The notes under the pieces were generated by a model that saw only the letters and a program-made list of their open reading frames with translations, was not told the DNA's origin and ran no database searches. Made by a program: the position numbers and the translations under genes. Below are positions 1 to 12,896 of a DNA stretch of 12,896 nt, in pieces (position 1 is the stretch's first letter; each line of letters starts with the position of its first letter). Origin of the DNA: a virus. Its lineage: Duplodnaviria; Heunggongvirae; Uroviricota; Caudoviricetes. The DNA lies in the IMG/VR virus record IMGVR_UViG_2541047596_000008, positions 1 to 12,896 of that record. One strand, written 5' to 3'.

Positions 1-267
1 TTACTCTGCAGGTGAAGTCGGCCACTCAATATCAGGTGCAGTTGATGTATCAACACGATTCAACAATACCCGATATTTATTCCATGCCTCCAGCAACGAT
101 CTTTCTTCCGCCGTTGCGATTTCCAGATCTACAGCATCCTGCAGTGGCGCAATATACTCACTGAATTCCTGGATGTGGAACTGTGTGGTGACGGTCTTCC
201 AGTCATTCGGCTCCTGCTGTATCGAAGCATACCAGGCTATTTCAATATCGCTATGCTGCGGCAGCAT
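1..267 (-). CDS. Tail fibre assembly protein remnant (C-terminal chaperone domain only, 88 aa)
   Basis: The C-terminal 55 residues ([45 protein letters not shown]) are near-identical to the C-terminus of the full tfa at 1047..1631; the N-terminal part is unrelated. ATG at 265-267 and TAA at 1-3. Confidence 0.7.
20..165. repeat. Direct repeat copy A (tfa C-terminal coding sequence), about 85% identical to 1069..1214
   Basis: By eye the nucleotide strings ggccactcaatatcaggtgcagttgatgtatcaacac ... ttccagatct(a/g)cagcatcctg recur at both positions in the same orientation. Confidence 0.7.
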
Positions 268-294
268 TTAACCCCTTGTAATTCATCGCCATAA

Positions 295-323
295 TTGATT
301 TAATTCACAAATAAAACTATAAC
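295..323 (+). promoter_or_regulatory. Candidate sigma70 promoter for the methyltransferase gene (TTGATT, 17-nt spacer, TATAAC)
   Basis: Hexamers at about 295-300 and 318-323 in an AT-rich stretch directly upstream of the ORF. A GGTGA Shine-Dalgarno at 326-330 favours the ATG at 336 over the ATG at 324 as the true start. Confidence 0.3.
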
Positions 324-992
324 ATGGTGAAATCAATGAAAAAAAACACAGATGATGGGGCTAAAATTTACACACCACTTACCCTAAAGCTTTATGACTG
401 GTGGGTTTTGGGAGTATCAAATCGGCTTGCATGGGGATGTCCTACAAAGGAACACCTTCTTCCACACTTTCTGGAACATGTAGGTAACAACCATCTGGAT
501 ATTGGTGTTGGAACTGGGTTTTACCTTACTCACGTACCTGAGAGTAGTCTGATATCTTTAATGGATTTGAACGAAGCTAGCCTGAACGCGGCATCTACAA
601 GGGCTGGGGAATCAAAAATTAAACATAAAATTAGCCATGATGTTTTTGAACCTTATCCCGCGGCGTTACATGGTCAATTTGATTCCATTTCCATGTTTTA
701 CCTTCTTCACTGCCTGCCTGGAAATATATCTACAAAAAGCTGTGTAATACGCAATGCGGCGCAGGCCTTAACTGACGATGGAACTCTATACGGAGCCACA
801 ATTCTTGGCGATGGAGTTGTGCACAATAGCTTCGGTCAAAAACTGATGCGCATTTACAATCAGAAAGGCATCTTTTCAAACACAAAAGATTCCGAAGAAG
901 GCTTAACACATATACTCTCAGAGCATTTCGAGAATGTTAAAACCAAGGTTCAAGGTACTGTAGTAATGTTTTCCGCTTCAGGGAAAAAATAG
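324..992 (+). CDS. Class I SAM-dependent methyltransferase (prophage moron); true start probably the ATG at 336
   Basis: Motif I LDIGVGTGF (glycine-rich SAM-binding loop) followed by an acidic residue at the end of the next strand (LMDLNEA). AT-rich relative to the flanking tail genes, opposite strand to them, and sandwiched between tfa and a tfa remnant. This arrangement resembles the tfaD-ybcY-tfaX arrangement I recall from E. coli K-12 prophage DLP12 (from memory, unverified). Confidence 0.75.
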   Translation: MVKSMKKNTDDGAKIYTPLTLKLYDWWVLGVSNRLAWGCPTKEHLLPHFLEHVGNNHLDIGVGTGFYLTHVPESSLISLMDLNEASLNAASTRAGESKIKHKISHDVFEPYPAALHGQFDSISMFYLLHCLPGNISTKSCVIRNAAQALTDDGTLYGATILGDGVVHNSFGQKLMRIYNQKGIFSNTKDSEEGLTHILSEHFENVKTKVQGTVVMFSASGKK

Positions 993-999
993 CATCCAA

Positions 1000-1032
1000 C
1001 CGCAGCACGTTCTTGCTTAAGACGTGCTGCGG
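1000..1032. terminator. Stem-loop between the convergent methyltransferase and tfa genes (11-bp perfect stem, 11-nt loop)
   Basis: ccgcagcacgt (1000-1010) pairs with acgtgctgcgg (1022-1032). On the minus strand the stem is followed a few nt later by a T-run (TATTTTTT), consistent with termination of the tfa transcript. Confidence 0.5.
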
Positions 1033-1046
1033 CATAATCCCAATGA

Positions 1047-1631
1047 TTACTCCCTGACAGGGTTCGTAGGCCACTCAATATCAGGTGCAGTTGATGTATC
1101 AACACGGTTCAGCAACACCCGATACTTTTTCCAGGCTTCCAGCAATGAGGTTTCTTTCTCCGTTGCAATTTCCAGATCTGCAGCATCCTGAAGCGGCGCA
1201 ATATGCTCACTGGCTACCTGCATCAGGTTGTTTTTTGTTTCTTCCGCCTCCCGGATCCGGAACAGTTTTTCTGCTTCCGTATCCTTCACCCAGGCTGTGC
1301 CGTTCCACTTCTGAAACTCCCCTTCCGGCGATAACCAGGTAACATTTTCCGGTAACGGACCGAGTTCAGAAATAAATAACTCGTCCCCTGACGCTACGTC
1401 ATAAACCGTTTTCCCCCGATGGTCTTCAACGAGATGCCACGATGCCTCATCACTGTTGAAAACAGCCACAAAGCCAGCAGGAATATCTGGTGGTGCAATA
1501 TCGGTACTGTTTGCTGGCAGACCTGTATGAGGCGGAATATATGCGTCACCTTCACCAATAAATTCATTAGTTCCGGCCAGCAGATTATAAATTTTTATGG
1601 TCCGTGCTTGTTCACTCATTCTGAATGCCAT
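1047..1631 (-). CDS. tfa: Tail fibre assembly protein Tfa (194 aa)
   Basis: The translation ([44 protein letters not shown]...) is near-identical over its whole length to my recollection of phage lambda Tfa. Its start ATG overlaps the stf stop (TAATG). Confidence 0.9.
1069..1214. repeat. Direct repeat copy B (tfa C-terminal coding sequence), partner of 20..165
   Basis: See copy A; same orientation, about 85% identity by eye. Confidence 0.7.
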
Positions 1632-4600
1632 TATGCAAGCCTCACAATATAGTTAAATGCGATGTTTTTGACGGTGTTTTCCGCGTTACCCGCAGCGTTA
1701 ACGGTGATGGTGTGTCCATGTGAACCAATCGCAACGGAGTGCGTATGCGCACCAATACCTACAGTATGTGCATGTGCGCCAGAACTTGCTGCAGTACCAG
1801 ACAGCGAGTGGGTATGAGCACCTGCTGACTGTGTCTGAATACGTTGATAATACGATCTATAGGAAGAAGTCTCCGGGCTTACTTGATACTGTGAATTCTG
1901 GACATAAGTGAACCCACCGCCATCATAAAATGCTAACGCAGAACCGCCGCCTCCTGGCCAACGAATACCATTACCATGAGTATGAACACCGGCAGACCCC
2001 GTAGAGCCACTCAGACTGTGCGTATGCGCCCCGGTGTTATTCGTGGATTTAGTGCCGTAATCAAACGACGATGTGGTTTTCGTCCCCAAATCCGTACTGG
2101 ATGCGCTGGCGCTGTGGGTGTGCGATTTTATGCCGTCCTGTTCCTGAGACAATACGGCCCGGCCACTGGCGGGTTTGCCCTTGATTGTCCAGCCGCGCAT
2201 ATCTGGAATAACACCTGAAGGATAGGCAATAGCCAGTTTCGGATATGCTGCCTTATCAAACGTCTGCCCCTGCATGATCGCATAACCTGCAGGTGGTGTA
2301 TCTGATGGCCACGGCAGCGGAACACCTGGCGGAAACGCTTCAATATTTGCCGAGCCGTCAAATTTTACGCCGTTAATTGTCCTTGCAGTTTGCAATTTGG
2401 TTGCTGTGCTTGCATTACCCGATAAAGATCCAGTGATACCACCACTCGCGTTTAATTTAGTTGCAATTGTAACATTGCCAGTATGGTTACTAATTATAAA
2501 CGGCCTTAAGCTATTGTGCGTACCAAGACTGTTACCCGAATCTGTCAACATAAAATATGTGTTTGATCCATCATTTCGGATAAAGAATCCATAGTTGCCA
2601 TAGGCAATACGCAGACCATTTGCTGACCTTGAAATAACCTCACCAGCAGCAGTTAAACCACCTGAAAGAGTCCCTCCAGTTAATGCCAATGCCCCAATAT
2701 TTGAAGGGGTCAATGTGATATTTGCACTACCATCAAATGACACACCGTTAATCGTTCTGGCTGCCTGAAGTTTCGTGGCGGTCGCAGCATTACCTGTAGT
2801 GTTTTGATTACCGGTAGCGTTGACTCCAGGCAAGTTGATATCTGCCGATCCATCAAATGCCACGCCCCCAATCTTACGTGCTGTCTTGATCTTGGTCGCA
2901 GTATCTGCGTTTCCGGTCAAATTACCAGTAACACTACCACCAACTTTTAGTCCATTACCGATGGACACCAACCCTGATCTTAAGTTTATAGAGAATGGTC
3001 TTAATGAACCGATGTCTCCATTTTCCCCCTCCCCTTCATTAGTCGGAATAAGATGAAGATGATCTTCGGAACGCCTAAAAATAAGGCCAAAGGCTTGGTT
3101 GAATATTCGAAGAGCATTTATCGTGCTGATTTTTAACTGCCCTCCCATTGTGTCGCCAGTTTTTTGAACTGAACTATCTTTAACAGTTTTAACTGCCTTT
3201 GGCGTTGCCGCCAGCTTTTCACTGGTGCTGTTTGTTGCACTGCTGAGCTGTACTATCCCCTTTTTCGTCGTGCTCGCATCCTCCAGCGCCACGGCGGATG
3301 CAATATCCTCTGCCCGTTTTGCTGCTGTCTCGGCGCGCGTTGCCGCGGATTCAGCAGCAACTTTGCTCTGAGATGCAGCCATCGCACTGCCTGCCGCCTC
3401 TGATGCTTTCGTTGTTGCTGTCGTGGCACTACCTTTCGCTGCTGACGCTTGTCTGGTCGCCTCATCTTTTGAAGCAGACGCAGATGATGCCGATGACGCC
3501 GCTGAACTGGCTGACGATGCGGCTGCCGCCTTAGAGGAAGCAGCATTGTCTGCTGAAGTCTTTGCATTTGTTTCAGAGGTTTTTGCTGCAGAAGCAGACC
3601 TCGCTGCTGCAGTGGCTTGCTCAGTGGCTTTGCCAGCTTTCGTTGTGGCTGTTGAAGCGGATGATGCGGCGCTTTCTGCCGATTTTCCGGCGGCGGTGGC
3701 ACTGGCTGAGGCCTGCCCGGCACTTGTTGACGCGGCACTGGCAGATAATGCAGCCGCTGTTTTTGAACCTGCCGCAGCTGAGGCGCTCTGTCCCGCTGCT
3801 GTTTCAGAAGACTTAGCGTTCGTCTCGGACGTTTTTGCCGCCTTCGCGGAATTTCCTGCCGCCGTTGCCGAGGAAGCTGCACTACTGGCACTTGATGATG
3901 CATTCGTTTCTGAAGATTTCGCTGCCTCTTTTGAGGCCGCCGCACCCCGTGCCGAGGTGGCAGCTTCTGACGCCTTCGTGGTCGCTGTGGATGCAGAAGT
4001 GGCTGCCGATTTTTGTGATGCTGCGGCATTCGTTTCTGACGTTTTCGCGGCACTGGCGCTGGTAGCTGCCGCGCTTTTTGATGACTCTGCAGCAGCAGCA
4101 CTTTTTGCTGCTTCACGGGCCTTTGTCGATGCCGTTCCTGCGCTGGAAGACGCTGACTGAGCCGACGACGCGGCCTGTCCGGCTGACGTGCTGGCGGCAC
4201 GTGCTGAGGCTGCAGCATCGGTTGCATGAGTTGCCGCCTCGCTGGCTGATGCACTGGCATCGCTGGCTGATTTTTTCGCGGCTGCCGTATTCTGTGCAAC
4301 CGCGGAGGCGTTACGTGACACCTCTTCCACCATCTGCTCAAAGCGGCGCAGTGCCTCCGGTCGGACATCATCCTCCGTCATGGCACCGAGAAAATCATTC
4401 AGCGTACCTGGTCTGGAACCTTCATAGACGGTAATGGTCCCGGCATGTGAAGGCGGAAAACCTTCAACCAGCAGGGTGACGCTGTACTGGCCATGCTCAA
4501 CATCCATGCTGTAACGTCCGGCTTCATCCGGATTTTCAGAGGCCACCGTGTTCACCACCACCGTGCTGCTGGTTCGTCTGGCCTTCAGCACAATGGTGCA

Positions 4601-4657
4601 GTTCTGTACTGGTTTTCCTGTGCCATCTTTAAGCACGCCAGAAATTTTTACTGTCAT
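1631..4657 (-). CDS. stf: Side tail fibre protein Stf (1008 aa), mosaic
   Basis: The N-terminus ([20 protein letters not shown]...) and the C-terminal HxH-rich tip (GAHTHSLSG..., [49 protein letters not shown]) match my recollection of lambda Stf. There is a long Ala/Ser/Thr-rich low-complexity region with recurring KTSETNA units and three copies of a phage tail-fibre repeat (GN-A-TATK-TAR-I-GV-FDGSA-I). Confidence 0.9.
3220..4300 (-). repeat. Low-complexity Ala/Ser/Thr-rich repetitive coding region inside stf
   Basis: Protein residues about 120-480 are dominated by A/S/T with recurring [15 protein letters not shown] and [10 protein letters not shown] units. This region produces long spurious ORFs in other frames on both strands. 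Confidence 0.7.
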
Positions 4658-4670
4658 ACTTTTCCACCAA

Positions 4671-4704
4671 TAAAAAAAGCCCGCAGCAGTGACGCCACGG
4701 GCTT
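4671..4704 (-). terminator. Probable rho-independent terminator downstream of lom (minus strand)
   Basis: On the minus strand a GC stem (AAGCCCG...CGGGCTT) is followed by TTTTTTTATT, lying between the lom stop and the stf start. The stem is imperfect and the loop long, so confidence is modest. Confidence 0.4.
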
Positions 4705-4808
4705 CAGGACAGTGTAACTTTACGTTTCCTCAAACGCAGTTCACCCCATAAGGTGGATGAACCTGCGTATCATAACAATATTTACAGAAGATAAATCGGC
4801 GTCTGTTG

Positions 4809-5408
4809 TCAGAAACGGTATCCGATACCAACAATAAATGCATCCGTTCGCCAGTCGCCACTACCGGAACCTTCATAAGCAAGGTCAATGGTTACGGATT
4901 CGGTCGGGTTAAACTGCACGCCAGCCCCCCACGCCAGAGACGTGTTGCTGTGGCGACCGTCATCACTTCCGGTCAGCACATCGTGCGTTTTCCCCTTGTT
5001 GTCAGTTACGCGGAGATAATCCCCGGAGAAAGTCGACACACGGCTGTAAGCCACACCCACCATCGCATACGCGCTGAACCATTCATTCACGCGTACAGAC
5101 GGCCCCGCCATCACGCTGAACCAGCGGTTACGCACGGAATCTTCATGCCAGCGGGTATCGCTGTAGCGCGTTTTTTGCTCATCCTCAGCATTGGCATAAC
5201 TGAAGGACGTAATCAGCCCCAGCGCGTCCGTAAACTCATAACGGTATTTCACGTTAATCCCGTTCAGATTATCGCTGCCGGGAGCGTTCGTACGGGCATG
5301 AAGATACCCCGCGCTCAGTGTGGACTGATGTTCAGACGCCCATGCAGGCGCACCGGATACGGACAGACAGATGGCTGCGGACAAAATGGCTGCACAAACT
5401 TTACGCAT
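4809..5408 (-). CDS. lom: Lom outer-membrane protein (Ail/Lom family beta-barrel)
   Basis: Signal peptide MRKVCAAILSAAICLSVSGAPAWA, C-terminal aromatic residue (GYRF), and near-identity to lambda Lom as I recall it. GAGG Shine-Dalgarno about 7 nt upstream. Confidence 0.92.
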   Translation of the reverse strand: MRKVCAAILSAAICLSVSGAPAWASEHQSTLSAGYLHARTNAPGSDNLNGINVKYRYEFTDALGLITSFSYANAEDEQKTRYSDTRWHEDSVRNRWFSVMAGPSVRVNEWFSAYAMVGVAYSRVSTFSGDYLRVTDNKGKTHDVLTGSDDGRHSNTSLAWGAGVQFNPTESVTIDLAYEGSGSGDWRTDAFIVGIGYRF

Positions 5409-5431
5409 AATTACCTCTCGCTTTTCTGCAA

Positions 5432-5456
5432 TAAAAAAGGCGCCATTTCTGGCGCC
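5432..5456 (-). terminator. Rho-independent terminator between the J-like remnant and lom (minus strand)
   Basis: Minus-strand hairpin GGCGCC-AGAAAT-GGCGCC immediately followed by TTTTTTATT. Confidence 0.55.
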
Positions 5457-5475
5457 CGTATTGGGGTTATAAAAT

Positions 5476-6126
5476 TCAGCTAATCGTGATGCCTGCAGTG
5501 GCTTTCTTCATCACAACAACCAGCAAATCGCTGATACTTGCTGTGGGATACCAGCCATTTACCCACCATGCTGATACAGAAAACTCCAGCGTCATGTGGC
5601 CGCGACCAGCAGGCATATCAATAACACCACTGTAAATCAGCGTATTATCCAGCGCGGTACGGTTATAAATTTCAGCACCGTTTTTCCGTACTATCAGGCG
5701 GCATGACGAATAAGTATCGCTGTTCTCCCGCTCATGTCTGGCACCGCTGAAAGCCACCGCCGGAATAACAATCTGCCGGTTAAACGGCTGATCGTCATAA
5801 ACCCTGACGGTAATGGTTCCTGATGGCCAACGCTCCGGTGCACGGGAGTCACGGGGGAAAGCCTTACCCACTGTTTTAACGAGATCGCCTTCAATCTGGT
5901 TTGCAGACAGTTTCCCTCTGATGACACAGTTCTCGTTAATGGTGACATTATTGAGCGTGCCGGTATTCGCCGTGATGGCTCCACTGATATAAGGGGTTAT
6001 GGCCACCGGACTACCAAACGGCTGCCAGCCCTCTTTCAGTTTATGTGTCAGCTTTTCCGCAAGATCTGACGGCGACGCCGCTCTGACAACATCATAGTGT
6101 TTAAATGCCATGGTTCTTTCCACCAT
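5476..6126 (-). CDS. Probable C-terminal remnant of the central tail fibre/host-specificity protein J (about 210 aa retained)
   Basis: Position only: it sits immediately upstream of lom with a 67-bp gap, as J does in lambda. Base composition switches abruptly to AT-rich at about 6127, and the reading frame is open upstream to a stop near 6196 without a convincing start signal. I cannot recall the J C-terminal sequence well enough to confirm homology. Confidence 0.5.
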
Positions 6127-6371
6127 CTGAAAAATGATTCTTTAAAATACCTGACATGTAATACAGAAAAAACACAAAACCATACCTTAATTAAAAACCT
6201 CATCATCAAGCAGATATGCATGGATAAACTACAAGACGAGATATAAACCACCCTGCATTTAAATAAACAATAAACAACATCAGAAAAATAATTCTGCTCT
6301 ATGGTTTACAATCAAAAATATCATTTATACTTTTCAGAACATCACCAGCAAGGCATAAACAAGGAAACTAA

Positions 6372-6707
6372 ATGAAGTGGATTGTGATTGATACAGTTAT
6401 CCAGCCATCATGCGGAATATCTTTTTCAGTCATATGGAGTAAAATAAAATTAATAATCTGGTATCAATCGGATGCTTTCTTACCTCCTGAAAGTATATTT
6501 ACACTGACTCACACAGGCATCATGCTCAATAACAAAGTGCTGCCTGTAACCATTTACAACGTAGTACCATTCAATAAAACATTCTGGAATTTAATCAAAA
6601 ACAGCCAGGAATGCCCTACAAATACAGATAACGTATTGAATGAATGCTTTAATAACCGTTGCACTCTGCAAATATGTCCTTATGGGCTAAAACAACAAAG
6701 TCCATAA
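6372..6707 (+). CDS. Hypothetical protein, AT-rich cargo gene (111 aa, Cys-rich C-terminus)
   Basis: Good Shine-Dalgarno (AAGGAA, about 5 nt before the ATG) and a candidate promoter upstream (TTTACA, 17-nt spacer, TACTTT, about 6303-6331). About half of its Ile codons are the rare ATA. The C-terminus has four Cys spaced as C-x11-C-x4-C-x4-C ([23 protein letters not shown]). No family recognised. Confidence 0.4.
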
Positions 6708-6741
6708 GGAGTTTACTCACATCTGACAAAATCAATATAAA

Positions 6742-6763
6742 CAGCCCCTCCGGAGAGGGGCTG
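6742..6763. terminator. Strong GC hairpin (9-bp perfect stem, 4-nt loop), likely bidirectional terminator for the convergent cargo units
   Basis: CAGCCCCTC-CGGA-GAGGGGCTG; on the minus strand it is followed by TTTATATTGATTTTG. It lies 35 nt after the stop of the 6372..6707 ORF. Confidence 0.45.
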
Positions 6764-7154
6764 GAGAGTGGCGCTATGTGCCATTGCATGGTGCCGGGTG
6801 CCTCCCGGTGAATTCAGTACCAGCACCTGAATCCGCGATTATCCCATATACCTACTCGCTGATTGCCCCTCCGCACAGGGGGATTCACCATGCCAGTTTC
6901 TTTTAACAAACTCCCCGCAAACCAGACAACAGTCAACCGCCTGAATTGTGAAGTATTTAAAAATTTCTCCCGCTAACTGATACCCGGCTAACAGTCTGGC
7001 GTTTTCTTTTTCAGCAACGGGAAAGCAGCAACCACCACACCCGCCACCAGCACACCGTCAGCCAGCACTGACATTATCCGGCTGCTGCAATGCCATTCAC
7101 AAAAACAGTAAGCAATCACTTTTTACCGTAACCGGTGATAATCCAGATATGTAT

Positions 7155-7511
7155 CTACCCCAGATGAGTAATCCGAAGTTCATCCATACCACAGGTCCTG
7201 GCTATTCTGTTGTACTCCTGAACAAGAGCAAATAATTCTGAATTAGCCACCATGAACTCATCGCAAACCCTCTGTATAGCATCACTATTCAGAATAATAA
7301 CGTCTCTTCCCGAAAGACGATCAGGAGTACAGAACAAAACTGTCAAACGGCTGAAGGCCTTTGCTCGTTCTGCATTGACTATATCAATACGCTGCCTAAG
7401 GATGAAACACCCCGACGCCTCATCAATATTCACTCTACCCACACCATATGAATGATAAATATTTAATGCTGAAAAAACCATTAGACCGTATAACAAACAC
7501 TCAATCAACAC
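7155..7511 (-). CDS. Hypothetical protein, cargo ORF immediately downstream of the tRNA cluster (118 aa as tracked)
   Basis: The tracked start is a GTG with no Shine-Dalgarno; the first ATG is at codon 11. It is rich in rare AGA/AGG/ATA codons. No family recognised; it could be a remnant. Confidence 0.35.
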   Translation of the reverse strand: MLIECLLYGLMVFSALNIYHSYGVGRVNIDEASGCFILRQRIDIVNAERAKAFSRLTVLFCTPDRLSGRDVIILNSDAIQRVCDEFMVANSELFALVQEYNRIARTCGMDELRITHLG

Positions 7512-7618
7512 TTAACAGAACTTTTATTTTTGACAAACATATAATATTTTCAACAATATCCTGAGCCAGGTATATTTCAGTATAAGGCTCTGCCGAAAGG
7601 AATCTGGAAGAATGAATA

Positions 7619-7695
7619 TGGCGCGCTGTACTGGATTCGAACCAGTGACCGATTGCTTAGAAGGCAATTGCTCTGTCCGGCTGAGCTAACAACGC
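7619..7695 (-). tRNA. tRNA-Arg (anticodon UCU)
   Basis: The minus-strand sequence GCGTTGTTAGCTCAGCCGGACAGAGCAATTGCCTTCTAAGCAATCGGTCACTGGTTCGAATCCAGTACAGCGCGCCA folds as a cloverleaf with anticodon loop CTTCTAA, a GGTTCGAATCC T-arm and an encoded CCA. Confidence 0.85.
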
Positions 7696-7708
7696 ATGAT
7701 GCAGATAA

Positions 7709-7785
7709 TGGACCGCCATCGGGGACTTGAACCCCGCGCAGCCAGCTTCGAAGGCTGGCGCTCTTTCCTGATGAGCTAATGGCGG
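7709..7785 (-). tRNA. tRNA-Arg (anticodon UCG)
   Basis: The minus-strand sequence ...TAGCTCATCAGGAAAGAGCGCCAGCCTTCGAAGCTGGCTGCGCGGGGTTCAAGTCCCCGATGGCGGTCCA has anticodon stem CCAGC/GCTGG, loop CTTCGAA and a GGTTCAAGTCC T-arm. Confidence 0.8.
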
Positions 7786-7792
7786 TATGTGA

Positions 7793-7868
7793 TGGTGGCC
7801 CTTGCTGGATTTGAACCAGCGACCTGGCGATTATGAGTCGCTCGCTCTCACCACTGAGCTAAAGGGCC
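7793..7868 (-). tRNA. tRNA with CAU anticodon, most likely tRNA-Ile2 (lysidine-modified, reads AUA), alternatively tRNA-Met
   Basis: The minus-strand sequence GGCCCTTTAGCTCAGTGGTGAGAGCGAGCGACTCATAATCGCCAGGTCGCTGGTTCAAATCCAGCAAGGGCCACCA closely resembles E. coli ileX-type tRNA as I recall it; anticodon loop CTCATAA. Confidence 0.85.
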
Positions 7869-7904
7869 GGGAGCAGAATAATAACGGTCCGTAATTAATT
7901 CCGC

Positions 7905-7931
7905 AATAAAAAACCCGCTCGGCGGCGGGTT
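7905..7931 (-). terminator. tR'-like rho-independent terminator downstream of the Q-like gene
   Basis: Minus-strand hairpin AACCCGC-CGCCGA-GCGGGTT followed by TTTTTTATT, located between the candidate late promoter and the tRNA cluster. Confidence 0.6.
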
Positions 7932-7978
7932 GTAGAAACTCTTCTAACGTCAGGCATAAAAAGCCCATTGTTATGACG

Positions 7979-8006
7979 AATTTACCACAGATTCCGGAAA
8001 AATCAA
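7979..8006 (-). promoter_or_regulatory. Candidate late promoter (pR'-like) and presumptive Q-utilisation region
   Basis: On the minus strand TTGATT (8006..8001), a 16-nt spacer, then TAAATT (7984..7979), starting immediately after the Q-like stop. This is the same position as pR' relative to Q in lambda. Confidence 0.4.
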
Positions 8007-8011
8007 CCTTG

Positions 8012-8833
8012 TTACCTAGTTACCTTTTTTAACTGCCGCTCAGCCCATGCTTCTTCAATATCAAACCGGGTCACCAGCGCATCATAGAATTTCTTAACTG
8101 TTTTTTCCCATGACGCGCGTGTTATCTGGTTTGTCACCTCGCATATAGCATTAAATGCCTCCGTTGATGGTAGTCTTTCATAGCCACGACCACCACAACG
8201 CTGGCAGTCTCTGATAACAGGCATACCACGTTTTACCGACTCTTCACGATGAATGGCGACACCACGCCCACGGCAATCCTTACAGGCGGTGGAAACCTCA
8301 CCCTTTCCGCCACACTCCGGACAGGCAACTTTTACCACCTCCCTGACTTTTTTCCATTCTTCCCAGTAAGACGAATACACACCTTTCGTACACTTTGCCC
8401 ATACCGGCGGCTTACCATCCGGATACTGGACCTTGTTTGTAAAAACTACGCTTTCAATAAATTTTTCCCCATAGCAACAAGGGCACTGCTTTTTACTCGC
8501 TGCGCTGCGGGCATAATCCTCAAAAGCGTACGAAGCCATAATGCGCATCACTACCGGTTTTATTTCTGCCGGAAGTTTTCTCAACGCCGCCACACGATCG
8601 CACCGACTGAGTGCATAATCTGCCAGTAATTCTGTTGCCCGCGCCCTGTCATTCATACTGATGCCCATTTTCCCCAGGAACGCAGAAAAACCCATCTCAG
8701 CCCGATTCTGTGTCATGCCCTGCGCGGCCATCACATCAGTGATACTCAGCGCATCTTTTGACGTTGAGGCCGATGCATCGGTCAGGCCAGGGGATTTTGG
8801 GGAGTAGTATTTCGGTAAATCTTCCAGTTTCAT
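8012..8833 (-). CDS. Putative late-gene antitermination protein (Q-like) with four CxxCxGxG zinc-finger repeats
   Basis: Position: after rusA and before a promoter, terminator and the tRNAs. The C-terminal half carries CPCCYGEKF, CPECGGKGE, CKDCRGRGV and CQRCGGRGY. Size and position fit the larger Q-like proteins of E. coli prophages. The family assignment rests on synteny and zinc-finger content, not on a recognised alignment. Confidence 0.6.
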   Translation of the reverse strand: MKLEDLPKYYSPKSPGLTDASASTSKDALSITDVMAAQGMTQNRAEMGFSAFLGKMGISMNDRARATELLADYALSRCDRVAALRKLPAEIKPVVMRIMASYAFEDYARSAASKKQCPCCYGEKFIESVVFTNKVQYPDGKPPVWAKCTKGVYSSYWEEWKKVREVVKVACPECGGKGEVSTACKDCRGRGVAIHREESVKRGMPVIRDCQRCGGRGYERLPSTEAFNAICEVTNQITRASWEKTVKKFYDALVTRFDIEEAWAERQLKKVTR

Positions 8834-8847
8834 TTTTTGACCTGCTC

Positions 8848-9210
8848 TTAATGCATTATGGGGTAAATCTTCACCCCCAGACGTCCACCAGATACTGGCT
8901 GACCACGAACGATATTGATTTCATCAAACTGCTCATCGTCCATTAACACTCCCGCATGCGTCAGCGCATCCAGCGGTGCTTTCAGGATATTGTCCAGGTC
9001 GCGACGACGCTTATCCGGTGGCTCTGCAATCACCTTTATCGCCAGCCTTCCGGACAGGTTTAATTTCAGCCGCTGCTGGCGAACAATTAGCGCCACATCA
9101 CGGCGATAACGCTTTCCGGCCTCCGAGATGAAATACGTATTGCCATGACGTCGCCAGTAGGTATTCACCGTCGGCGGGTAAGGCAAAACAAATTCTATGC
9201 GTTCAGTCAT
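8848..9210 (-). CDS. rusA: Holliday junction resolvase RusA
   Basis: 120 aa with the motif PDKRRRDLDN and a downstream acidic MDDEQ, close to E. coli RusA as I recall it. The start ATG abuts the upstream stop (TGAATG). Confidence 0.88.
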   Translation of the reverse strand: MTERIEFVLPYPPTVNTYWRRHGNTYFISEAGKRYRRDVALIVRQQRLKLNLSGRLAIKVIAEPPDKRRRDLDNILKAPLDALTHAGVLMDDEQFDEINIVRGQPVSGGRLGVKIYPIMH

Positions 9211-10269
9211 TCATGCTTTCCACTTCAGGACACCCGAATTTCTCGCGTGCATTAAAAAACGAATCAGCAACAACAGCTGGCTGCCGTGTTTTTCTTCAAA
9301 ATCTTTTACCCCGGCGTGCAGTTCGTTATGACATTTACGGCACAGCGGAATAACAAACAAATCATCAGCCTTTGTTCCCATACCTCCCAGGCCATGACCA
9401 ATGATGTGATGCGGATCATCTGCCTGATTACCGCACGTCATGCATTTCTGCGTTTTTACCCAGCGCGTGTATACAGGCATCTCTTCCCGTTGTGGTTTCT
9501 GGCGCTGGAGATACTGAGCCGGAGACTCCGGATCAACGGCGATGCTTACTAACGTCTTTTCCTGGAGTGGGGGCTGTTGCTGGTGGACGTGAAGTGGCAG
9601 CGCAATATTTTTTGTGCGCTGCTTCAGTATGCTGGTGGCAGTCTGTTCTCCCGGTACGATGTCACTCTCACGGTATACGGAGCGGATTTTTTCCACCGGT
9701 AATCCCAGTGAACGACACAATACAGACTCCGGAAGCGCATCAGCCACCTGATTGCAGACCGCCCACCAGGATAATTCGGCCAGCGATAACTCCCTCTCCT
9801 GCGTACCGCTGATTGCGTGACGGATGACGTCAATCATCCATGCTGACAAGTTTTGGTGAGCAAGTTGCTCAAGTGATTCTGAGGTCTGGTCACACAACTG
9901 GTTGTCGCAGTGCCAGCACAACACCATTGCGCCGGTACCATAACGGTGAATGACGGTTTCACTGTGGTGATAATCACCGTGTGGCCACTGGCAGGATTTA
10001 ATATGGCGCAACAGCCAGTCAGACAGTGCACCAGCGCCGCCAGCAGCACGAATCACACGCTCATTGCTGAAAAATGGCAGTAATGATTTATCCTCCGCCA
10101 GCGGCTGGCGAACGGCAGGGACGACTCCGGATGGCAGGCCGCACATGCTTTTCGGTTCCGGCTCCACCAGCACTCGAGGATTATGAAATATCTGTATGGA
10201 TTCACGGCCCGGCTTAAGGACCACCAGCCCAAGCTCAGGCACCAGAACAGGTCTAAGTAATACCCGCAC
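9211..10269 (-). CDS. DUF968-type phage protein with C-terminal HNH-like zinc-finger motif (nin-region gene); N-terminus possibly over-extended
   Basis: C-terminal CMTCGNQADDPHHIIGHGLGGMGTKADDLFVIPLCRKCHNELH (CxxC, HH, CxxCH). Position upstream of rusA. An internal ATG at codon 42 has a GGAG-like Shine-Dalgarno and may be the real start. Confidence 0.6.
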   Translation of the reverse strand: MRVLLRPVLVPELGLVVLKPGRESIQIFHNPRVLVEPEPKSMCGLPSGVVPAVRQPLAEDKSLLPFFSNERVIRAAGGAGALSDWLLRHIKSCQWPHGDYHHSETVIHRYGTGAMVLCWHCDNQLCDQTSESLEQLAHQNLSAWMIDVIRHAISGTQERELSLAELSWWAVCNQVADALPESVLCRSLGLPVEKIRSVYRESDIVPGEQTATSILKQRTKNIALPLHVHQQQPPLQEKTLVSIAVDPESPAQYLQRQKPQREEMPVYTRWVKTQKCMTCGNQADDPHHIIGHGLGGMGTKADDLFVIPLCRKCHNELHAGVKDFEEKHGSQLLLLIRFLMHARNSGVLKWKA

Positions 10270-10398
10270 GTTACCTCCAGATCCGTTGCTGGAAAGTGCG
10301 GGACGGACGTGGTGGGCGTTCGGAATAAGGCAGCCTGACAGAGATTATCCAGTGCCGATAACCAAGTAAAAGTCACCGCTGACGAAGTAAACAAAATT

Positions 10399-11478
10399 AT
10401 GCAGGCAGCCAATATCAGCCAGCCTGACGCCGATAAGTTGCTTGCTGCATCACGTGGTGAATTTGTTGAAGGGATTAGTGACCCGAATGATCCGAAATGG
10501 GTTAAGGGGCTCCAGACCCGCGATTCTGTGAACCAGAACCAGCATGAATCGGAACGGAACTACCAAAAAGCGGAACAAAACAGTCCAAATGCGTTACAAA
10601 ACGAGCCAGAAACGAAACAGCCTGAACCAGTAGCGCAACAGGAAGTGGAAAAAGTCTGCACCGCCTGCGGTCAGACCGGCGGCGGCAACTGCCCTGATTG
10701 TGGCGCGGTGATGGGCGACGCAACATACCAAGAAACATTCGATGAAGAGTATCAGGTTGAAGTTCAGGAAGATGATCCGGAGGAAATGGAAGGCGCTGAA
10801 CATCCACACAAGGAGAACACTGGCGGCAATCAGCATCACAATAGCGATAATGAAACTGGCGAGACGGCAGATCACCCAATTAAGGTGAACGGTCATCACG
10901 AAATCACATCCACCAGCAGGACGTGTGACCATCTAATGATCGACCTTGAAACCATGGGAAAAAATCCTGATGCCCCGATCATCTCAATAGGTGCAATATT
11001 TTTCGATCCGCAAACCGGAGATATGGGACCGGAATTTAGTAAGACTATCGATCTGGAAACTGCTGGCGGAGTCATTGATCGGGACACCATTAAATGGTGG
11101 CTTAAGCAATCACGCGAAGCGCAATCTGCCATTATGACCGATGAAATCCCGTTAGATGATGCACTGTTACAATTGCGAGAATTTATCGACGAAAACTCCG
11201 GTGAATTTTTTGTTCAGGTTTGGGGAAATGGAGCCAACTTCGACAACACGATTTTGCGCCGTTCATACGAACGGCAGGGGATCCCCTGCCCGTGGCGTTA
11301 CTACAACGATCGCGATGTACGCACAATCGTTGAGCTGGGGAAAGCCATAGACTTCGATGCCAGAACGGCTATTCCATTCGAAGGTGAGCGCCATAATGCA
11401 CTTGATGACGCCCGTTACCAGGCAAAATACGTTTCAGTTATCTGGCAAAAACTGATCCCGAGTCAGGCTGATTTTTAA
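10399..11478 (+). CDS. DEDDh-family 3'-5' exonuclease with a long acidic N-terminal extension containing a C4 zinc ribbon
   Basis: Exo I motif MIDLETMG, Exo II motif VWGNGANFD and Exo III motif [10 protein letters not shown] in the C-terminal roughly 180 aa. The N-terminal roughly 180 aa is low-complexity and acidic with [16 protein letters not shown]. It lies just upstream of xis and int, the position of early-left recombination or accessory genes. Confidence 0.7.
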
Positions 11479-11539
11479 TGTTCAACCGTCGCCAGTTGTC
11501 GTTGATATTCTGCAACTGGCGCGTTCCGGAGTGATAGCC

Positions 11540-11809
11540 ATGAGCGAACAGTACCTGATAACGCTCGACGAGTGGAAACCAAAACGGTTCAGTCTCCCAA
11601 TAACAAACACTACCCTGGTGAAATACGGAAAACTAGGATACATCGTTCCAAGGCCACAAAAAATTCGTGGGCGTTGGCTGATAGATCGCCGAGCAGTATT
11701 TGTTGGGCCTGGTGAAACGGGAATTGCGCCGGAAATTCATACTGGCGATGATGATGCACTGAAGGAGATTTTAACTCATGTCACCGAGGCCACGAAAAAA
11801 CAGCACTGA
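11540..11809 (+). CDS. xis: Excisionase-like protein (Xis)
   Basis: Small basic protein immediately upstream of, and overlapping, the integrase gene. GGAG Shine-Dalgarno 8 nt before the ATG at 11540; the tracked ORF begins at an upstream GTG at 11531. Assignment is mainly positional. Confidence 0.55.
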   Translation: MSEQYLITLDEWKPKRFSLPITNTTLVKYGKLGYIVPRPQKIRGRWLIDRRAVFVGPGETGIAPEIHTGDDDALKEILTHVTEATKKQH

Positions 11810-12896
11810 CGTAGCCGGTCTTTACGAAAAGTTTGATCGCAGAACTGGCAGAGTTTACTACCAGTATAAAAATCCTGTGACTGGAAAATTTCACGGACTC
11901 GGAACAGACAAAGGTAAGGCAGAAAAAATCGCTTCCACAGCCAATCAGCGAATAGCTGCAGCAGAAGCTGAATATTTCATGCGCAAAATTGATGAAAGTC
12001 CGTCAGCAACAAAACGTCGGGGTATCAGATTAAAGGCATGGGTTGATCGATATCTGAAAATACAGGACACGCGACTGAAAAATGGAGATATTGCAGCTAC
12101 AACTCACAAAGAAAAAACTCGAATGGCTGCATACCTGGTTTCCCGTCTGGGAAACCACCCATTGAAAGAACTGGAAGTAAGAGACTTTGCATTAATACTG
12201 GATGAGTGGCTGGATAAAGACATGGTCAGCACAGCGAGAGTAAATCGTGGATTATGGGTTGATATTTATAAAGAAGCACAGCATGCAGGGGAAGTTCCTC
12301 CTGGATGGAATCCTCCGGAGGCTACCCGTAAACCGATCCCTAAAGTAACCAGAGCCAGGCTCACCATGGAAGACTGGCAAAAAATTTACAATGCAACGCC
12401 TGAAAAACACTTTATCCGTAACGCAATGCTTCTTGCGATTGTTACTGGTCAGCGCCGTGATGACATTTGCCACATGCGTTTTTCAGATGTGTGGAACGAA
12501 CACTTGCATATCACCCAGGGAAAAACCGGAATGCGTCTGGCGTTACCGCTTACACTACGCTGTGATGCCATTGGGATAACGTTAAAAGAAGTTATTGATG
12601 GGTGCCGAGACAGAATATTAAGTCCATATCTAATCCATAGTCGGCACCAGAAACAACCGAAGCCGATGAGTAAAGACAACCTGAGCGACTACTTTGCCAA
12701 AGCACGGGATCTGGCTGGGATAATTCCACCAGCAGGAAAAACTCCGCCAACATTTCATGAACAACGCTCTCTATCAGAACGGCTGTACCGTGCACAGGGT
12801 ATCGATACAAAAACATTACTAGGACATAAAGTCCAGGCAACCACCGATCGCTATAACGATACTCGAGGTCAGGAATGGGTTAAGTTGGTTATTTGA
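11778..12896 (+). CDS. int: Lambda-family tyrosine integrase
   Basis: Catalytic-core motifs TGQRRDDICHMRF, HEQRSLSERLY and LLGHKVQATTDRYNDTRGQEW (catalytic Tyr) align with lambda Int as I recall it. AAGGAG Shine-Dalgarno upstream. The 5' end overlaps xis. The gene is transcribed towards the right edge, so the att site should lie just beyond the window. Confidence 0.9.
   Translation: MSPRPRKNSTDVAGLYEKFDRRTGRVYYQYKNPVTGKFHGLGTDKGKAEKIASTANQRIAAAEAEYFMRKIDESPSATKRRGIRLKAWVDRYLKIQDTRLKNGDIAATTHKEKTRMAAYLVSRLGNHPLKELEVRDFALILDEWLDKDMVSTARVNRGLWVDIYKEAQHAGEVPPGWNPPEATRKPIPKVTRARLTMEDWQKIYNATPEKHFIRNAMLLAIVTGQRRDDICHMRFSDVWNEHLHITQGKTGMRLALPLTLRCDAIGITLKEVIDGCRDRILSPYLIHSRHQKQPKPMSKDNLSDYFAKARDLAGIIPPAGKTPPTFHEQRSLSERLYRAQGIDTKTLLGHKVQATTDRYNDTRGQEWVKLVI

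Follow-up and report, generated by a model that had tools for sequence, protein, structure and literature searches.

The 12,896-nt stretch of DNA analyzed here (the window; IMG/VR virus record IMGVR_UViG_2541047596_000008, positions 1 to 12,896) is a lambdoid prophage, and an intact relative is present at locus L006 of E. coli NZ_AP022207.1. Three transfer RNA (tRNA) genes are found at positions 7619–7868, between the gene for the late antiterminator Q and a group of small cargo genes. In the original prediction these tRNAs were proposed to support the translation of two co-located open reading frames (ORFs) of 118 and 111 aa, denoted here ORF118 and IraM, in the manner suggested for the tRNAs upstream of the Shiga toxin genes (stx) in Stx phages. 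The anticodons of the three tRNAs match the codon preferences of the prophage as a whole and not those of the two neighboring genes. The features of the locus are presented in Table 1.

Exactly three tRNA genes were detected in the window using ARAGORN, all of them on the minus strand and in the order CAU, UCG, and UCU on the strand of Q. The same genes are recognized by the Rfam tRNA model with scores of 58–72.5 bits and E values of 1e-10 to 1e-14, relative to a gathering score of 29. The predicted anticodons, CAU (Ile2-like), UCG, and UCU, were confirmed with ARAGORN. Single-sequence minimum free energy folding returned a cloverleaf for one of the three tRNAs and was disregarded, as the covariance model and ARAGORN recognize all three.

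The tRNA with the CAU anticodon is labeled Met by ARAGORN. This label was rejected because the genuine ileX gene of E. coli K-12 receives the same one. The window tRNA is identical to K-12 ileX at 68 of 76 positions, the anticodon stem-loop is the same, and the C4-G69 and C5-G68 pairs are retained. These two pairs are determinants for TilS. A gene identical to the window CAU tRNA is annotated as tRNA-Ile in RefSeq. Given the shared ARAGORN label, the identity to ileX, and the RefSeq annotation, the CAU tRNA is classed by its sequence as an Ile2-like tRNA of the ileX/ileY type, as opposed to an elongator or initiator tRNA-Met. The UCU tRNA shares its anticodon loop with K-12 argU, and both of these genes encode the 3' CCA. 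The stems of the window tRNAs differ from those of ileX and argU with paired changes, and the window genes, unlike their host counterparts, are clustered and phage-borne. No tRNA-Arg with a UCG anticodon is known among the K-12 tRNA genes.

The trio is 95.0% identical over 277 nt to the ileZ-argN-argO genes of Stx2 phage 933W (AF125520, 21108–21385), and the predicted likeness to the tRNAs upstream of stx is thus one of homology. The ileZ portion is identical to that of 933W across the tRNA, and argN shows a few differences. The homology block starts at the putative tRNA promoter pT and stops ~10 nt past argO, with unrelated flanks on either side. The three genes represent the lambdoid-phage cassette pT-ileZ-argN-argO, a conserved and already known element first annotated in 933W, where the GenBank record also gives the codons recognized by each tRNA. 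The two phages share the three anticodons, their order, and their strand relative to Q, and in both the cassette is located between the Q/pR'/terminator segment and the first cargo of the late region. In 933W this cargo is stx2AB, whereas in the window it is ORF118 and a small DUF3927 gene. The Q allele and the pR' region of 933W are unrelated in sequence to those of the window, and the window prophage, in contrast to 933W, is a deletion remnant. Two positions of the UCU tRNA were also compared. Position 37 (window 7656) is A, as in host argU, and is G in the argO gene of 933W (L013); the acceptor-stem pair 4-69 is U-G in the window and U-A in 933W.

The gene order in L006 is integrase, excisionase, exonuclease, immunity/replication, DUF968, RusA, Q, the three tRNAs, and cargo, followed by holin and lysis genes, head, tail, J, Lom, and tail fiber. 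The tRNAs stand at the head of the late operon, between Q and the lysis genes, which in the window have been deleted. Three candidate transcription signals were located between Q and the first tRNA. The pR'-like promoter was picked out by eye and scores under the threshold of the consensus scan; the segment resembles pR'/qut of phage lambda, the TAAATT –10 element included. The tR'-like terminator has annotated counterparts at the equivalent relative position in 933W. The putative pT is likewise under the scan threshold, and its –10 element ends 9 nt ahead of the 5' end of the first tRNA. In the pR'-like region TAAATT is followed after 6 nt by AACAAT, with the terminator ~40 nt further, so that a short constitutive pR' RNA of ~60 nt would be expected. 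This class of short pR' transcript is reported in Stx phages as the StxS small RNA (sRNA; PMC7547250).

Table 1. Features of the window, with coordinates, strand, and supporting evidence.
Feature	Coordinates	Strand	Evidence and remarks
tRNA-Ile2-like ileZ, anticodon CAU	7793–7868	minus	ARAGORN (cat) and Rfam; would read AUA if C34 is converted to lysidine
tRNA-Arg argN, anticodon UCG	7709–7785	minus	ARAGORN (tcg) and Rfam; reads CGA/CGG
tRNA-Arg argO, anticodon UCU	7619–7695	minus	ARAGORN (tct) and Rfam; reads AGA/AGG
Late-gene antiterminator Q, 273 aa	8012–8833	minus	Pfam PF03589 Antiterm, E 6e-55; RefSeq "antitermination protein"
pR'-like late promoter (candidate)	7967–8005	minus	TTGATT 8005–8000; TGG and TAAATT (–10) 7987–7979; AACAAT pause-like element 7972–7967
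tR'-like intrinsic terminator between Q and tRNAs	7912–7931	minus	Terminator scan: stem of 7 pairs, 5 of them G-C, then TTTTATTG
Putative tRNA promoter pT	7878–7906	minus	TTGCGG 7906–7901, 17-nt spacer, TATTAT 7883–7878; aligns with 933W "pT; putative tRNA promoter"
ORF118 (118-aa ORF of the original prediction), small gene	7155–7511	minus	phrog_2873, E 2e-70; probable start GTG 7433 (92 aa)
DUF3927 small protein, 43 aa	6988–7119	minus	Pfam PF13064, E 1e-26; PHROG 1470 "TciB-like"
STnc100 prophage sRNA element	6733–6922	minus	Rfam RF02076, 132 bits (gathering 47); intrinsic terminator 6763–6742; closes cargo slot
IraM anti-adaptor, 111 aa	6372–6707	plus	NCBIfam NF007393, 162 bits (cut-off 121); RefSeq IraM
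DUF1737::J C-terminus in-frame fusion ORF	5476–6126	minus	Created by deletion 1; Pfam DUF1737 aa 8–50, Ig_GpJ_C aa 86–216
Deletion 1, 23.6 kb	junction 5988–5990		blastn against L006; removed lysis, head, and most tail genes
Deletion 2, 11.1 kb	junction 10360–10363		blastn against L006; removed immunity and replication region

The codon usage of the phage was determined from the 61 intact coding sequences of L006 and compared with that of 33 core genes (13,678 codons) from the same host genome. The codons read by the three tRNAs are rare in the host, as had been predicted. ATA accounts for 0.16 of the Ile codons in the prophage and 0.047 in the host core genes (p 1e-13). The corresponding fractions of Arg codons are 0.18 and 0.030 for AGA and AGG together (AGR; p 4e-24) and 0.30 and 0.19 for CGA and CGG together (p 4e-7). 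The excess of all three codon groups over the host is present in the early genes and the late genes taken separately. When the 59 degenerate codons are ranked by phage use over host use, AGA is first (5.5x), AGG is second (4.3x), ATA is third (2.7x), CGG is seventh, and CGA is twelfth. The rank-sum P for these five cognate codons is 2e-5. The same P is obtained when ORF118 and IraM are left out, and AGA, AGG, and ATA keep ranks 1–3. The two ORFs together hold 9 of the 110 ATA codons (8%), 6 of the 155 AGR codons (4%), and 2 of the 255 CGA and CGG codons (1%) of the intact phage.

Phage tRNAs are conventionally explained by the host-rare codons that they read. In the codon-compensation model of Bailly-Bechet et al. 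2007, phage tRNAs correspond to codons that the phage uses more than its host, and this holds here. PMC7946995, citing Bailly-Bechet, Vergassola and Rocha 2007, offers codon compensation as the explanation for precisely the tRNAs of Stx phages considered here. The scope of the model is the complete phage genome, whereas the original prediction placed it on two adjacent cargo ORFs, and the data do not support that step.

The manual codon counts on which the prediction was based are exact. The 11 Arg codons of ORF118 are AGA (3), AGG (3), CGA (1), CGG (1), and CGT (3), and 3 of its 11 Ile codons are ATA. The IraM ORF has 6 ATA codons among 13 for Ile, and its sole Arg codon, which had been missed, is CGT. 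The proposal that the tRNAs are kept beside the cargo to translate these rare-codon-rich genes draws on the AGR and ATA counts themselves, on the location of ORF118 directly downstream of the tRNAs on the same strand, and on the similar richness of stx2A in 933W (ATA 15/20, AGR 8/24). It is also favored by nominal enrichments. Relative to the rest of the window, ATA is enriched in IraM (6/13 vs 35/178, p = 0.036) and AGR is enriched in ORF118 (6/11 vs 43/186, p = 0.030), where the p values are one-sided and uncorrected and ORFs of ~100 codons give small counts. Relative to the rest of the prophage, the p values are 0.010 and 0.007, respectively. ATA and CGA plus CGG in ORF118 show no enrichment over the rest of the window (p = 0.39 and p = 0.79). 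The predicted enrichment over the window is therefore weakly upheld for two of these codon classes and fails for ATA and CGA plus CGG in ORF118.

The nominal enrichments fade when base composition is taken into account. Against prophage genes of low G+C content at third codon positions (GC3), the p values are 0.09 for ATA in IraM and 0.065 for AGR in ORF118. In a logistic model with GC3, none of five tests survives correction; P is 0.06–0.10 for ATA in IraM, 0.04–0.055 for AGR in ORF118, 0.42 for ATA in ORF118, and 0.85 for CGA plus CGG in ORF118. After correction, the two cargo ORFs are not significantly enriched in the cognate codons beyond what base composition and the rest of the phage account for. 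High use of ATA and AGR is a usual property of AT-rich acquired genes. The iraM gene of K-12 has 8 ATA codons among 18 for Ile, and K-12 mcrA has 8 among 21 together with 9 AGR codons among 17 for Arg. The 7-kb locus of K-12 that holds iraM and mcrA contains no tRNA gene, and the surroundings of iraM are clear for ~2.7 kb in one direction and for 4 kb in the opposite one, which argues against a need for adjacent tRNAs. The UCG tRNA is left unexplained by a link to the cargo, since CGA and CGG are not enriched in ORF118 and the one Arg codon of IraM is CGT. Furthermore, iraM is convergent with the tRNAs and the late transcript.

A census of complete E. coli genomes, 5,426 in number, was used to determine the distribution of the cassette. 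It is found at 7,595 places in 3,061 genomes, the DNA of ORF118 at 1,346 places in 1,185 genomes, and the iraM allele of the window at 1,604 places in 1,446 genomes. At most 18–21% of the cassette copies can thus neighbor ORF118 or iraM. Prophages with an empty slot are also known. The 642 bp of window 7605–6964, which contain ORF118 and DUF3927, are absent from the prophages of strains 55989 and NU14 (L015 and L016), where the cassette is separated from the STnc100 element by 22 nt and the flanks are 95–98% identical to the window. Both of these prophages instead have an insertion on the upstream side of the cassette, a DNA methyltransferase module. By this comparison, ORF118 and DUF3927 form a discrete inserted module that is present or absent as a block, as expected of a moron. 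The same kind of insertion is known for the Q-to-S morons of lambdoid phages, which include stx, iraM, and AraC-like regulators. A promoter-like site with 9 of 12 consensus matches is located at 7553–7526, and the terminator at 6763–6742 is within STnc100, outside the inserted block.

Other phages separate the cassette from its neighbors in further ways. A 98% match in phage mEp460_ev081 spans DUF3927, ORF118, the tRNA region, and Q, and ends short of iraM. Phage vB_EcoS-640R1 (L002) carries iraM, and of the cassette only ileZ (CAU) is left, at 5642–5717. At locus L008 (330–830) the UCU tRNA gene argO has decayed, although the TolA-like and AraC-like cargo downstream is rich in AGR (4/7 and 6/13). 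The cassette and the window cargo do not travel together. Their independence follows from the census counts, the empty slots, and the occurrence of iraM without the Arg tRNAs. The match to the whole phage, the GC3 control, and this independence speak against the proposal that the tRNAs are there to support the co-located cargo, and such a dedicated role is improbable. What remains of the rare-codon interpretation is that the tRNAs read codons rare in the host; the specific tie to the two adjacent ORFs does not hold.

The same modularity bears on the possibility that the tRNAs have little translational effect and persist as a conserved block at a recombination hot spot where cargo is swapped, with the copy in this remnant being a recent relic. 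The sharp limits of the homology, with unrelated flanks on both sides, would fit such an anchor, and cargo slots are found on either side of it, the upstream one holding the methyltransferase in NU14 and 55989 and the downstream one holding stx or ORF118. Decay and variation are apparent in the loss of argO in L008 and the survival of ileZ alone in L002. Window positions 6100–8900 show 100% identity to the corresponding segment of intact prophages, which suggests that both deletions are probably recent, and the retention of the cassette in this remnant is therefore uninformative about selection. The full-length Rfam matches of the tRNAs and the 95% identity between prophages with unrelated flanks, however, argue for purifying selection. 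The anticodons also coincide with the top-ranked phage-specific codons, which would be unexpected for a neutral passenger. In E. coli DS26-1 (L018, 2345–2654) a variant array, Ile2(CAU)-Lys(UUU)-Thr(UGU)-Gly(UCC), is located at the same prophage site immediately ahead of the holin gene, without intervening cargo, and it likewise reads over-used codons: GGA, ACA, and AAG have ranks 4, 6, and 9 in the phage-over-host codon table. A purely passive block is therefore judged unlikely.

A role in counter-defense was also considered, in which the tRNA-Arg and tRNA-Ile2 species of the phage would sustain late translation when anticodon nucleases or toxins cleave or deplete the host tRNAs. Enzymes of the colicin D type attack tRNA-Arg, and counter-defense tRNAs are established for other phages. 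Both argN and argO encode Arg isoacceptors, a UCG tRNA-Arg is not known from K-12, the adjacent DUF3927 protein matches a PHROG labeled "TciB-like ... resistance to colicin", and the tRNAs occupy the start of the late transcript. On the other hand, ileZ has the same anticodon stem-loop as host ileX, the UCU tRNA has the same anticodon loop as host argU, and neither carries escape substitutions such as those reported for phage tRNAs that evade nucleases. The cargo has no match in PADLOC, and the choice of anticodons is already well explained by the codon excess. Counter-defense is thus very unlikely as the basis of the cassette. Scarcely to be expected is a more specific form of it, in which the cassette, rather than chiefly supplying codons, would act against host systems that cleave or deplete tRNAs, with tRNA-Arg as a main target; the UCG tRNA as a non-host isoacceptor and the additional UCU and Ile2 copies at the start of the late transcript would sustain late translation, and DUF3927 and ORF118 might belong to the same protective module.

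The trio is probably a conserved lambdoid tRNA block that serves the codon excess of the phage as a whole, with its adjacency to the cargo arising from an insertion hot spot. From the identity, homology, and position of the genes, together with the codon statistics and the modularity of the locus, the following course of expression, modification, and effect on translation would be expected. The putative promoter pT would give weak transcription of the cassette, which would become strong once Q antiterminates late transcription. Host enzymes would process the transcript to the three tRNAs, and host TilS would be needed for the CAU tRNA to read AUA as Ile. The tRNAs would then add decoding capacity for ATA, AGA/AGG, and CGA/CGG, which the phage uses at ~1.5–5.5x the level of the host core genes. 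The main beneficiary would be the burst of late-gene translation, or phage translation generally, and AT-rich cargo would gain incidentally; the late genes are favored in this respect because the cassette stands first in the late transcript. The adjacency to ORF118, DUF3927, and IraM would reflect how a hot spot for cargo insertion is arranged in the interval from the cassette to the lysis genes, with STnc100 elements closing its slots, rather than codon matching. In the present remnant the cassette, transcribed from pT, would at most, if it acts at all, add slightly to the tRNAs of the host.

Several points weigh against this explanation. Host codon usage was taken from one 50-kb region containing 33 genes. 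An AT-shifted genome raises A-ending and AGR codons generally, and the rank test overstates the significance because the codons are not independent. Compared gene by gene across the prophage, the AGR count of ORF118 (6/11) and the ATA count of IraM (6/13) fall toward the top of the range, and the tRNAs may still be of modest additional benefit to the cargo. The late genes, as the proposed main beneficiary, are almost wholly lost from this remnant. Phage lambda is not known to have tRNA genes, which would make the cassette non-essential to lambdoid phages.

The cassette has been annotated in 933W, and E. coli genomes that carry it number in the thousands. The useful outcome of the analysis is a correction, in that the choice of tRNAs follows the prophage as a whole and the adjacency to the cargo comes from an insertion hot spot; rare-codon counts in short AT-rich ORFs should not be over-read. 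For annotators, the results provide a conserved gene, ORF118, that is unannotated by RefSeq wherever listed, and a modular map that runs from the cassette through the cargo slot to STnc100.

ORF118 was compared with a homologue of 60% identity. The ratio of nonsynonymous to synonymous substitution rates (dN/dS) is 0.27 for codons 27–118, 0.81 for codons 1–26, and 0.8–1.2 for the shifted frames. The remote relatives are 91–95 aa in length and belong to a small family with 21 representatives. P0017 was left out as a divergent comparator because an IS3-family element abuts its start. From the frame-specific dN/dS values and the lengths of the relatives, ORF118 appears to be a real gene under purifying selection, and translation probably starts at GTG 7433 to give a 92-aa product. 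ORF118 has no RefSeq annotation in the intact relative or among the 14 full-length matches listed. The possibility that it is spurious, which this would suggest, was rejected for codons 27–118; codons 1–26 are likely noncoding. The AlphaFold2 model predicts a helical hairpin with a predicted local distance difference test (pLDDT) score of 83. No significant match to the predicted structure was found in the PDB, where the best E-value was 0.45, and no match to ORF118 was found in Pfam, NCBIfam, or PADLOC. In the divergent prophages L008 and L012 the ORF118 homologue adjoins a regulator of the AraC family.

The IraM protein of the window is 62% identical to K-12 IraM over the full length (107 aa) and, as an anti-adaptor of this type, would inhibit RssB by binding it and so stabilize RpoS. 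Beyond the tail-fiber genes, distant from the tRNAs, a further AT-rich cargo gene on the plus strand (324–992; GC 0.41, ATA 4/12) encodes a class I S-adenosylmethionine (SAM)-dependent methyltransferase (PHROG 2132).

STnc100 is a known family of prophage sRNAs related to PasD (bioRxiv 10.64898/2026.05.13.724894). In 933W the slot holds stx2AB, with STnc100 directly after stx2B, and an STnc100 element with its terminator recurs after each cargo unit in the interval from the cassette to the holin gene in 933W, NU14, L002, and L008. The copies outside the window are located at L013 1404–1609, L016 1760–1969 and 2247–2437, L002 4634–4822 and 5098–5291, and L008 1344–1556 and 4650–4839. From this recurrence, the STnc100 elements look like fixed downstream boundaries of the cargo slots. 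In RefSeq, the strand opposite these STnc100 elements is annotated with a partial "hypothetical protein".

The structure of the remnant was obtained by blastn against L006. Window positions 1–5990 correspond to 117–6106 of L006, positions 5988–10360 to 29684–34056, and positions 10363–12896 to 45166–47699. The first two segments are 99.9% identical to L006 and the third is 97.9% identical. A contiguous copy of the whole window is absent among the complete E. coli genomes searched. An Rfam match to the sRNA candidate IS009 (222 bits) is found at 1090–1288 on the minus strand, inside the tail-fiber assembly gene. The 3' end of this gene is partly duplicated, with window positions 17–163 being 88% identical to positions 1066–1212.

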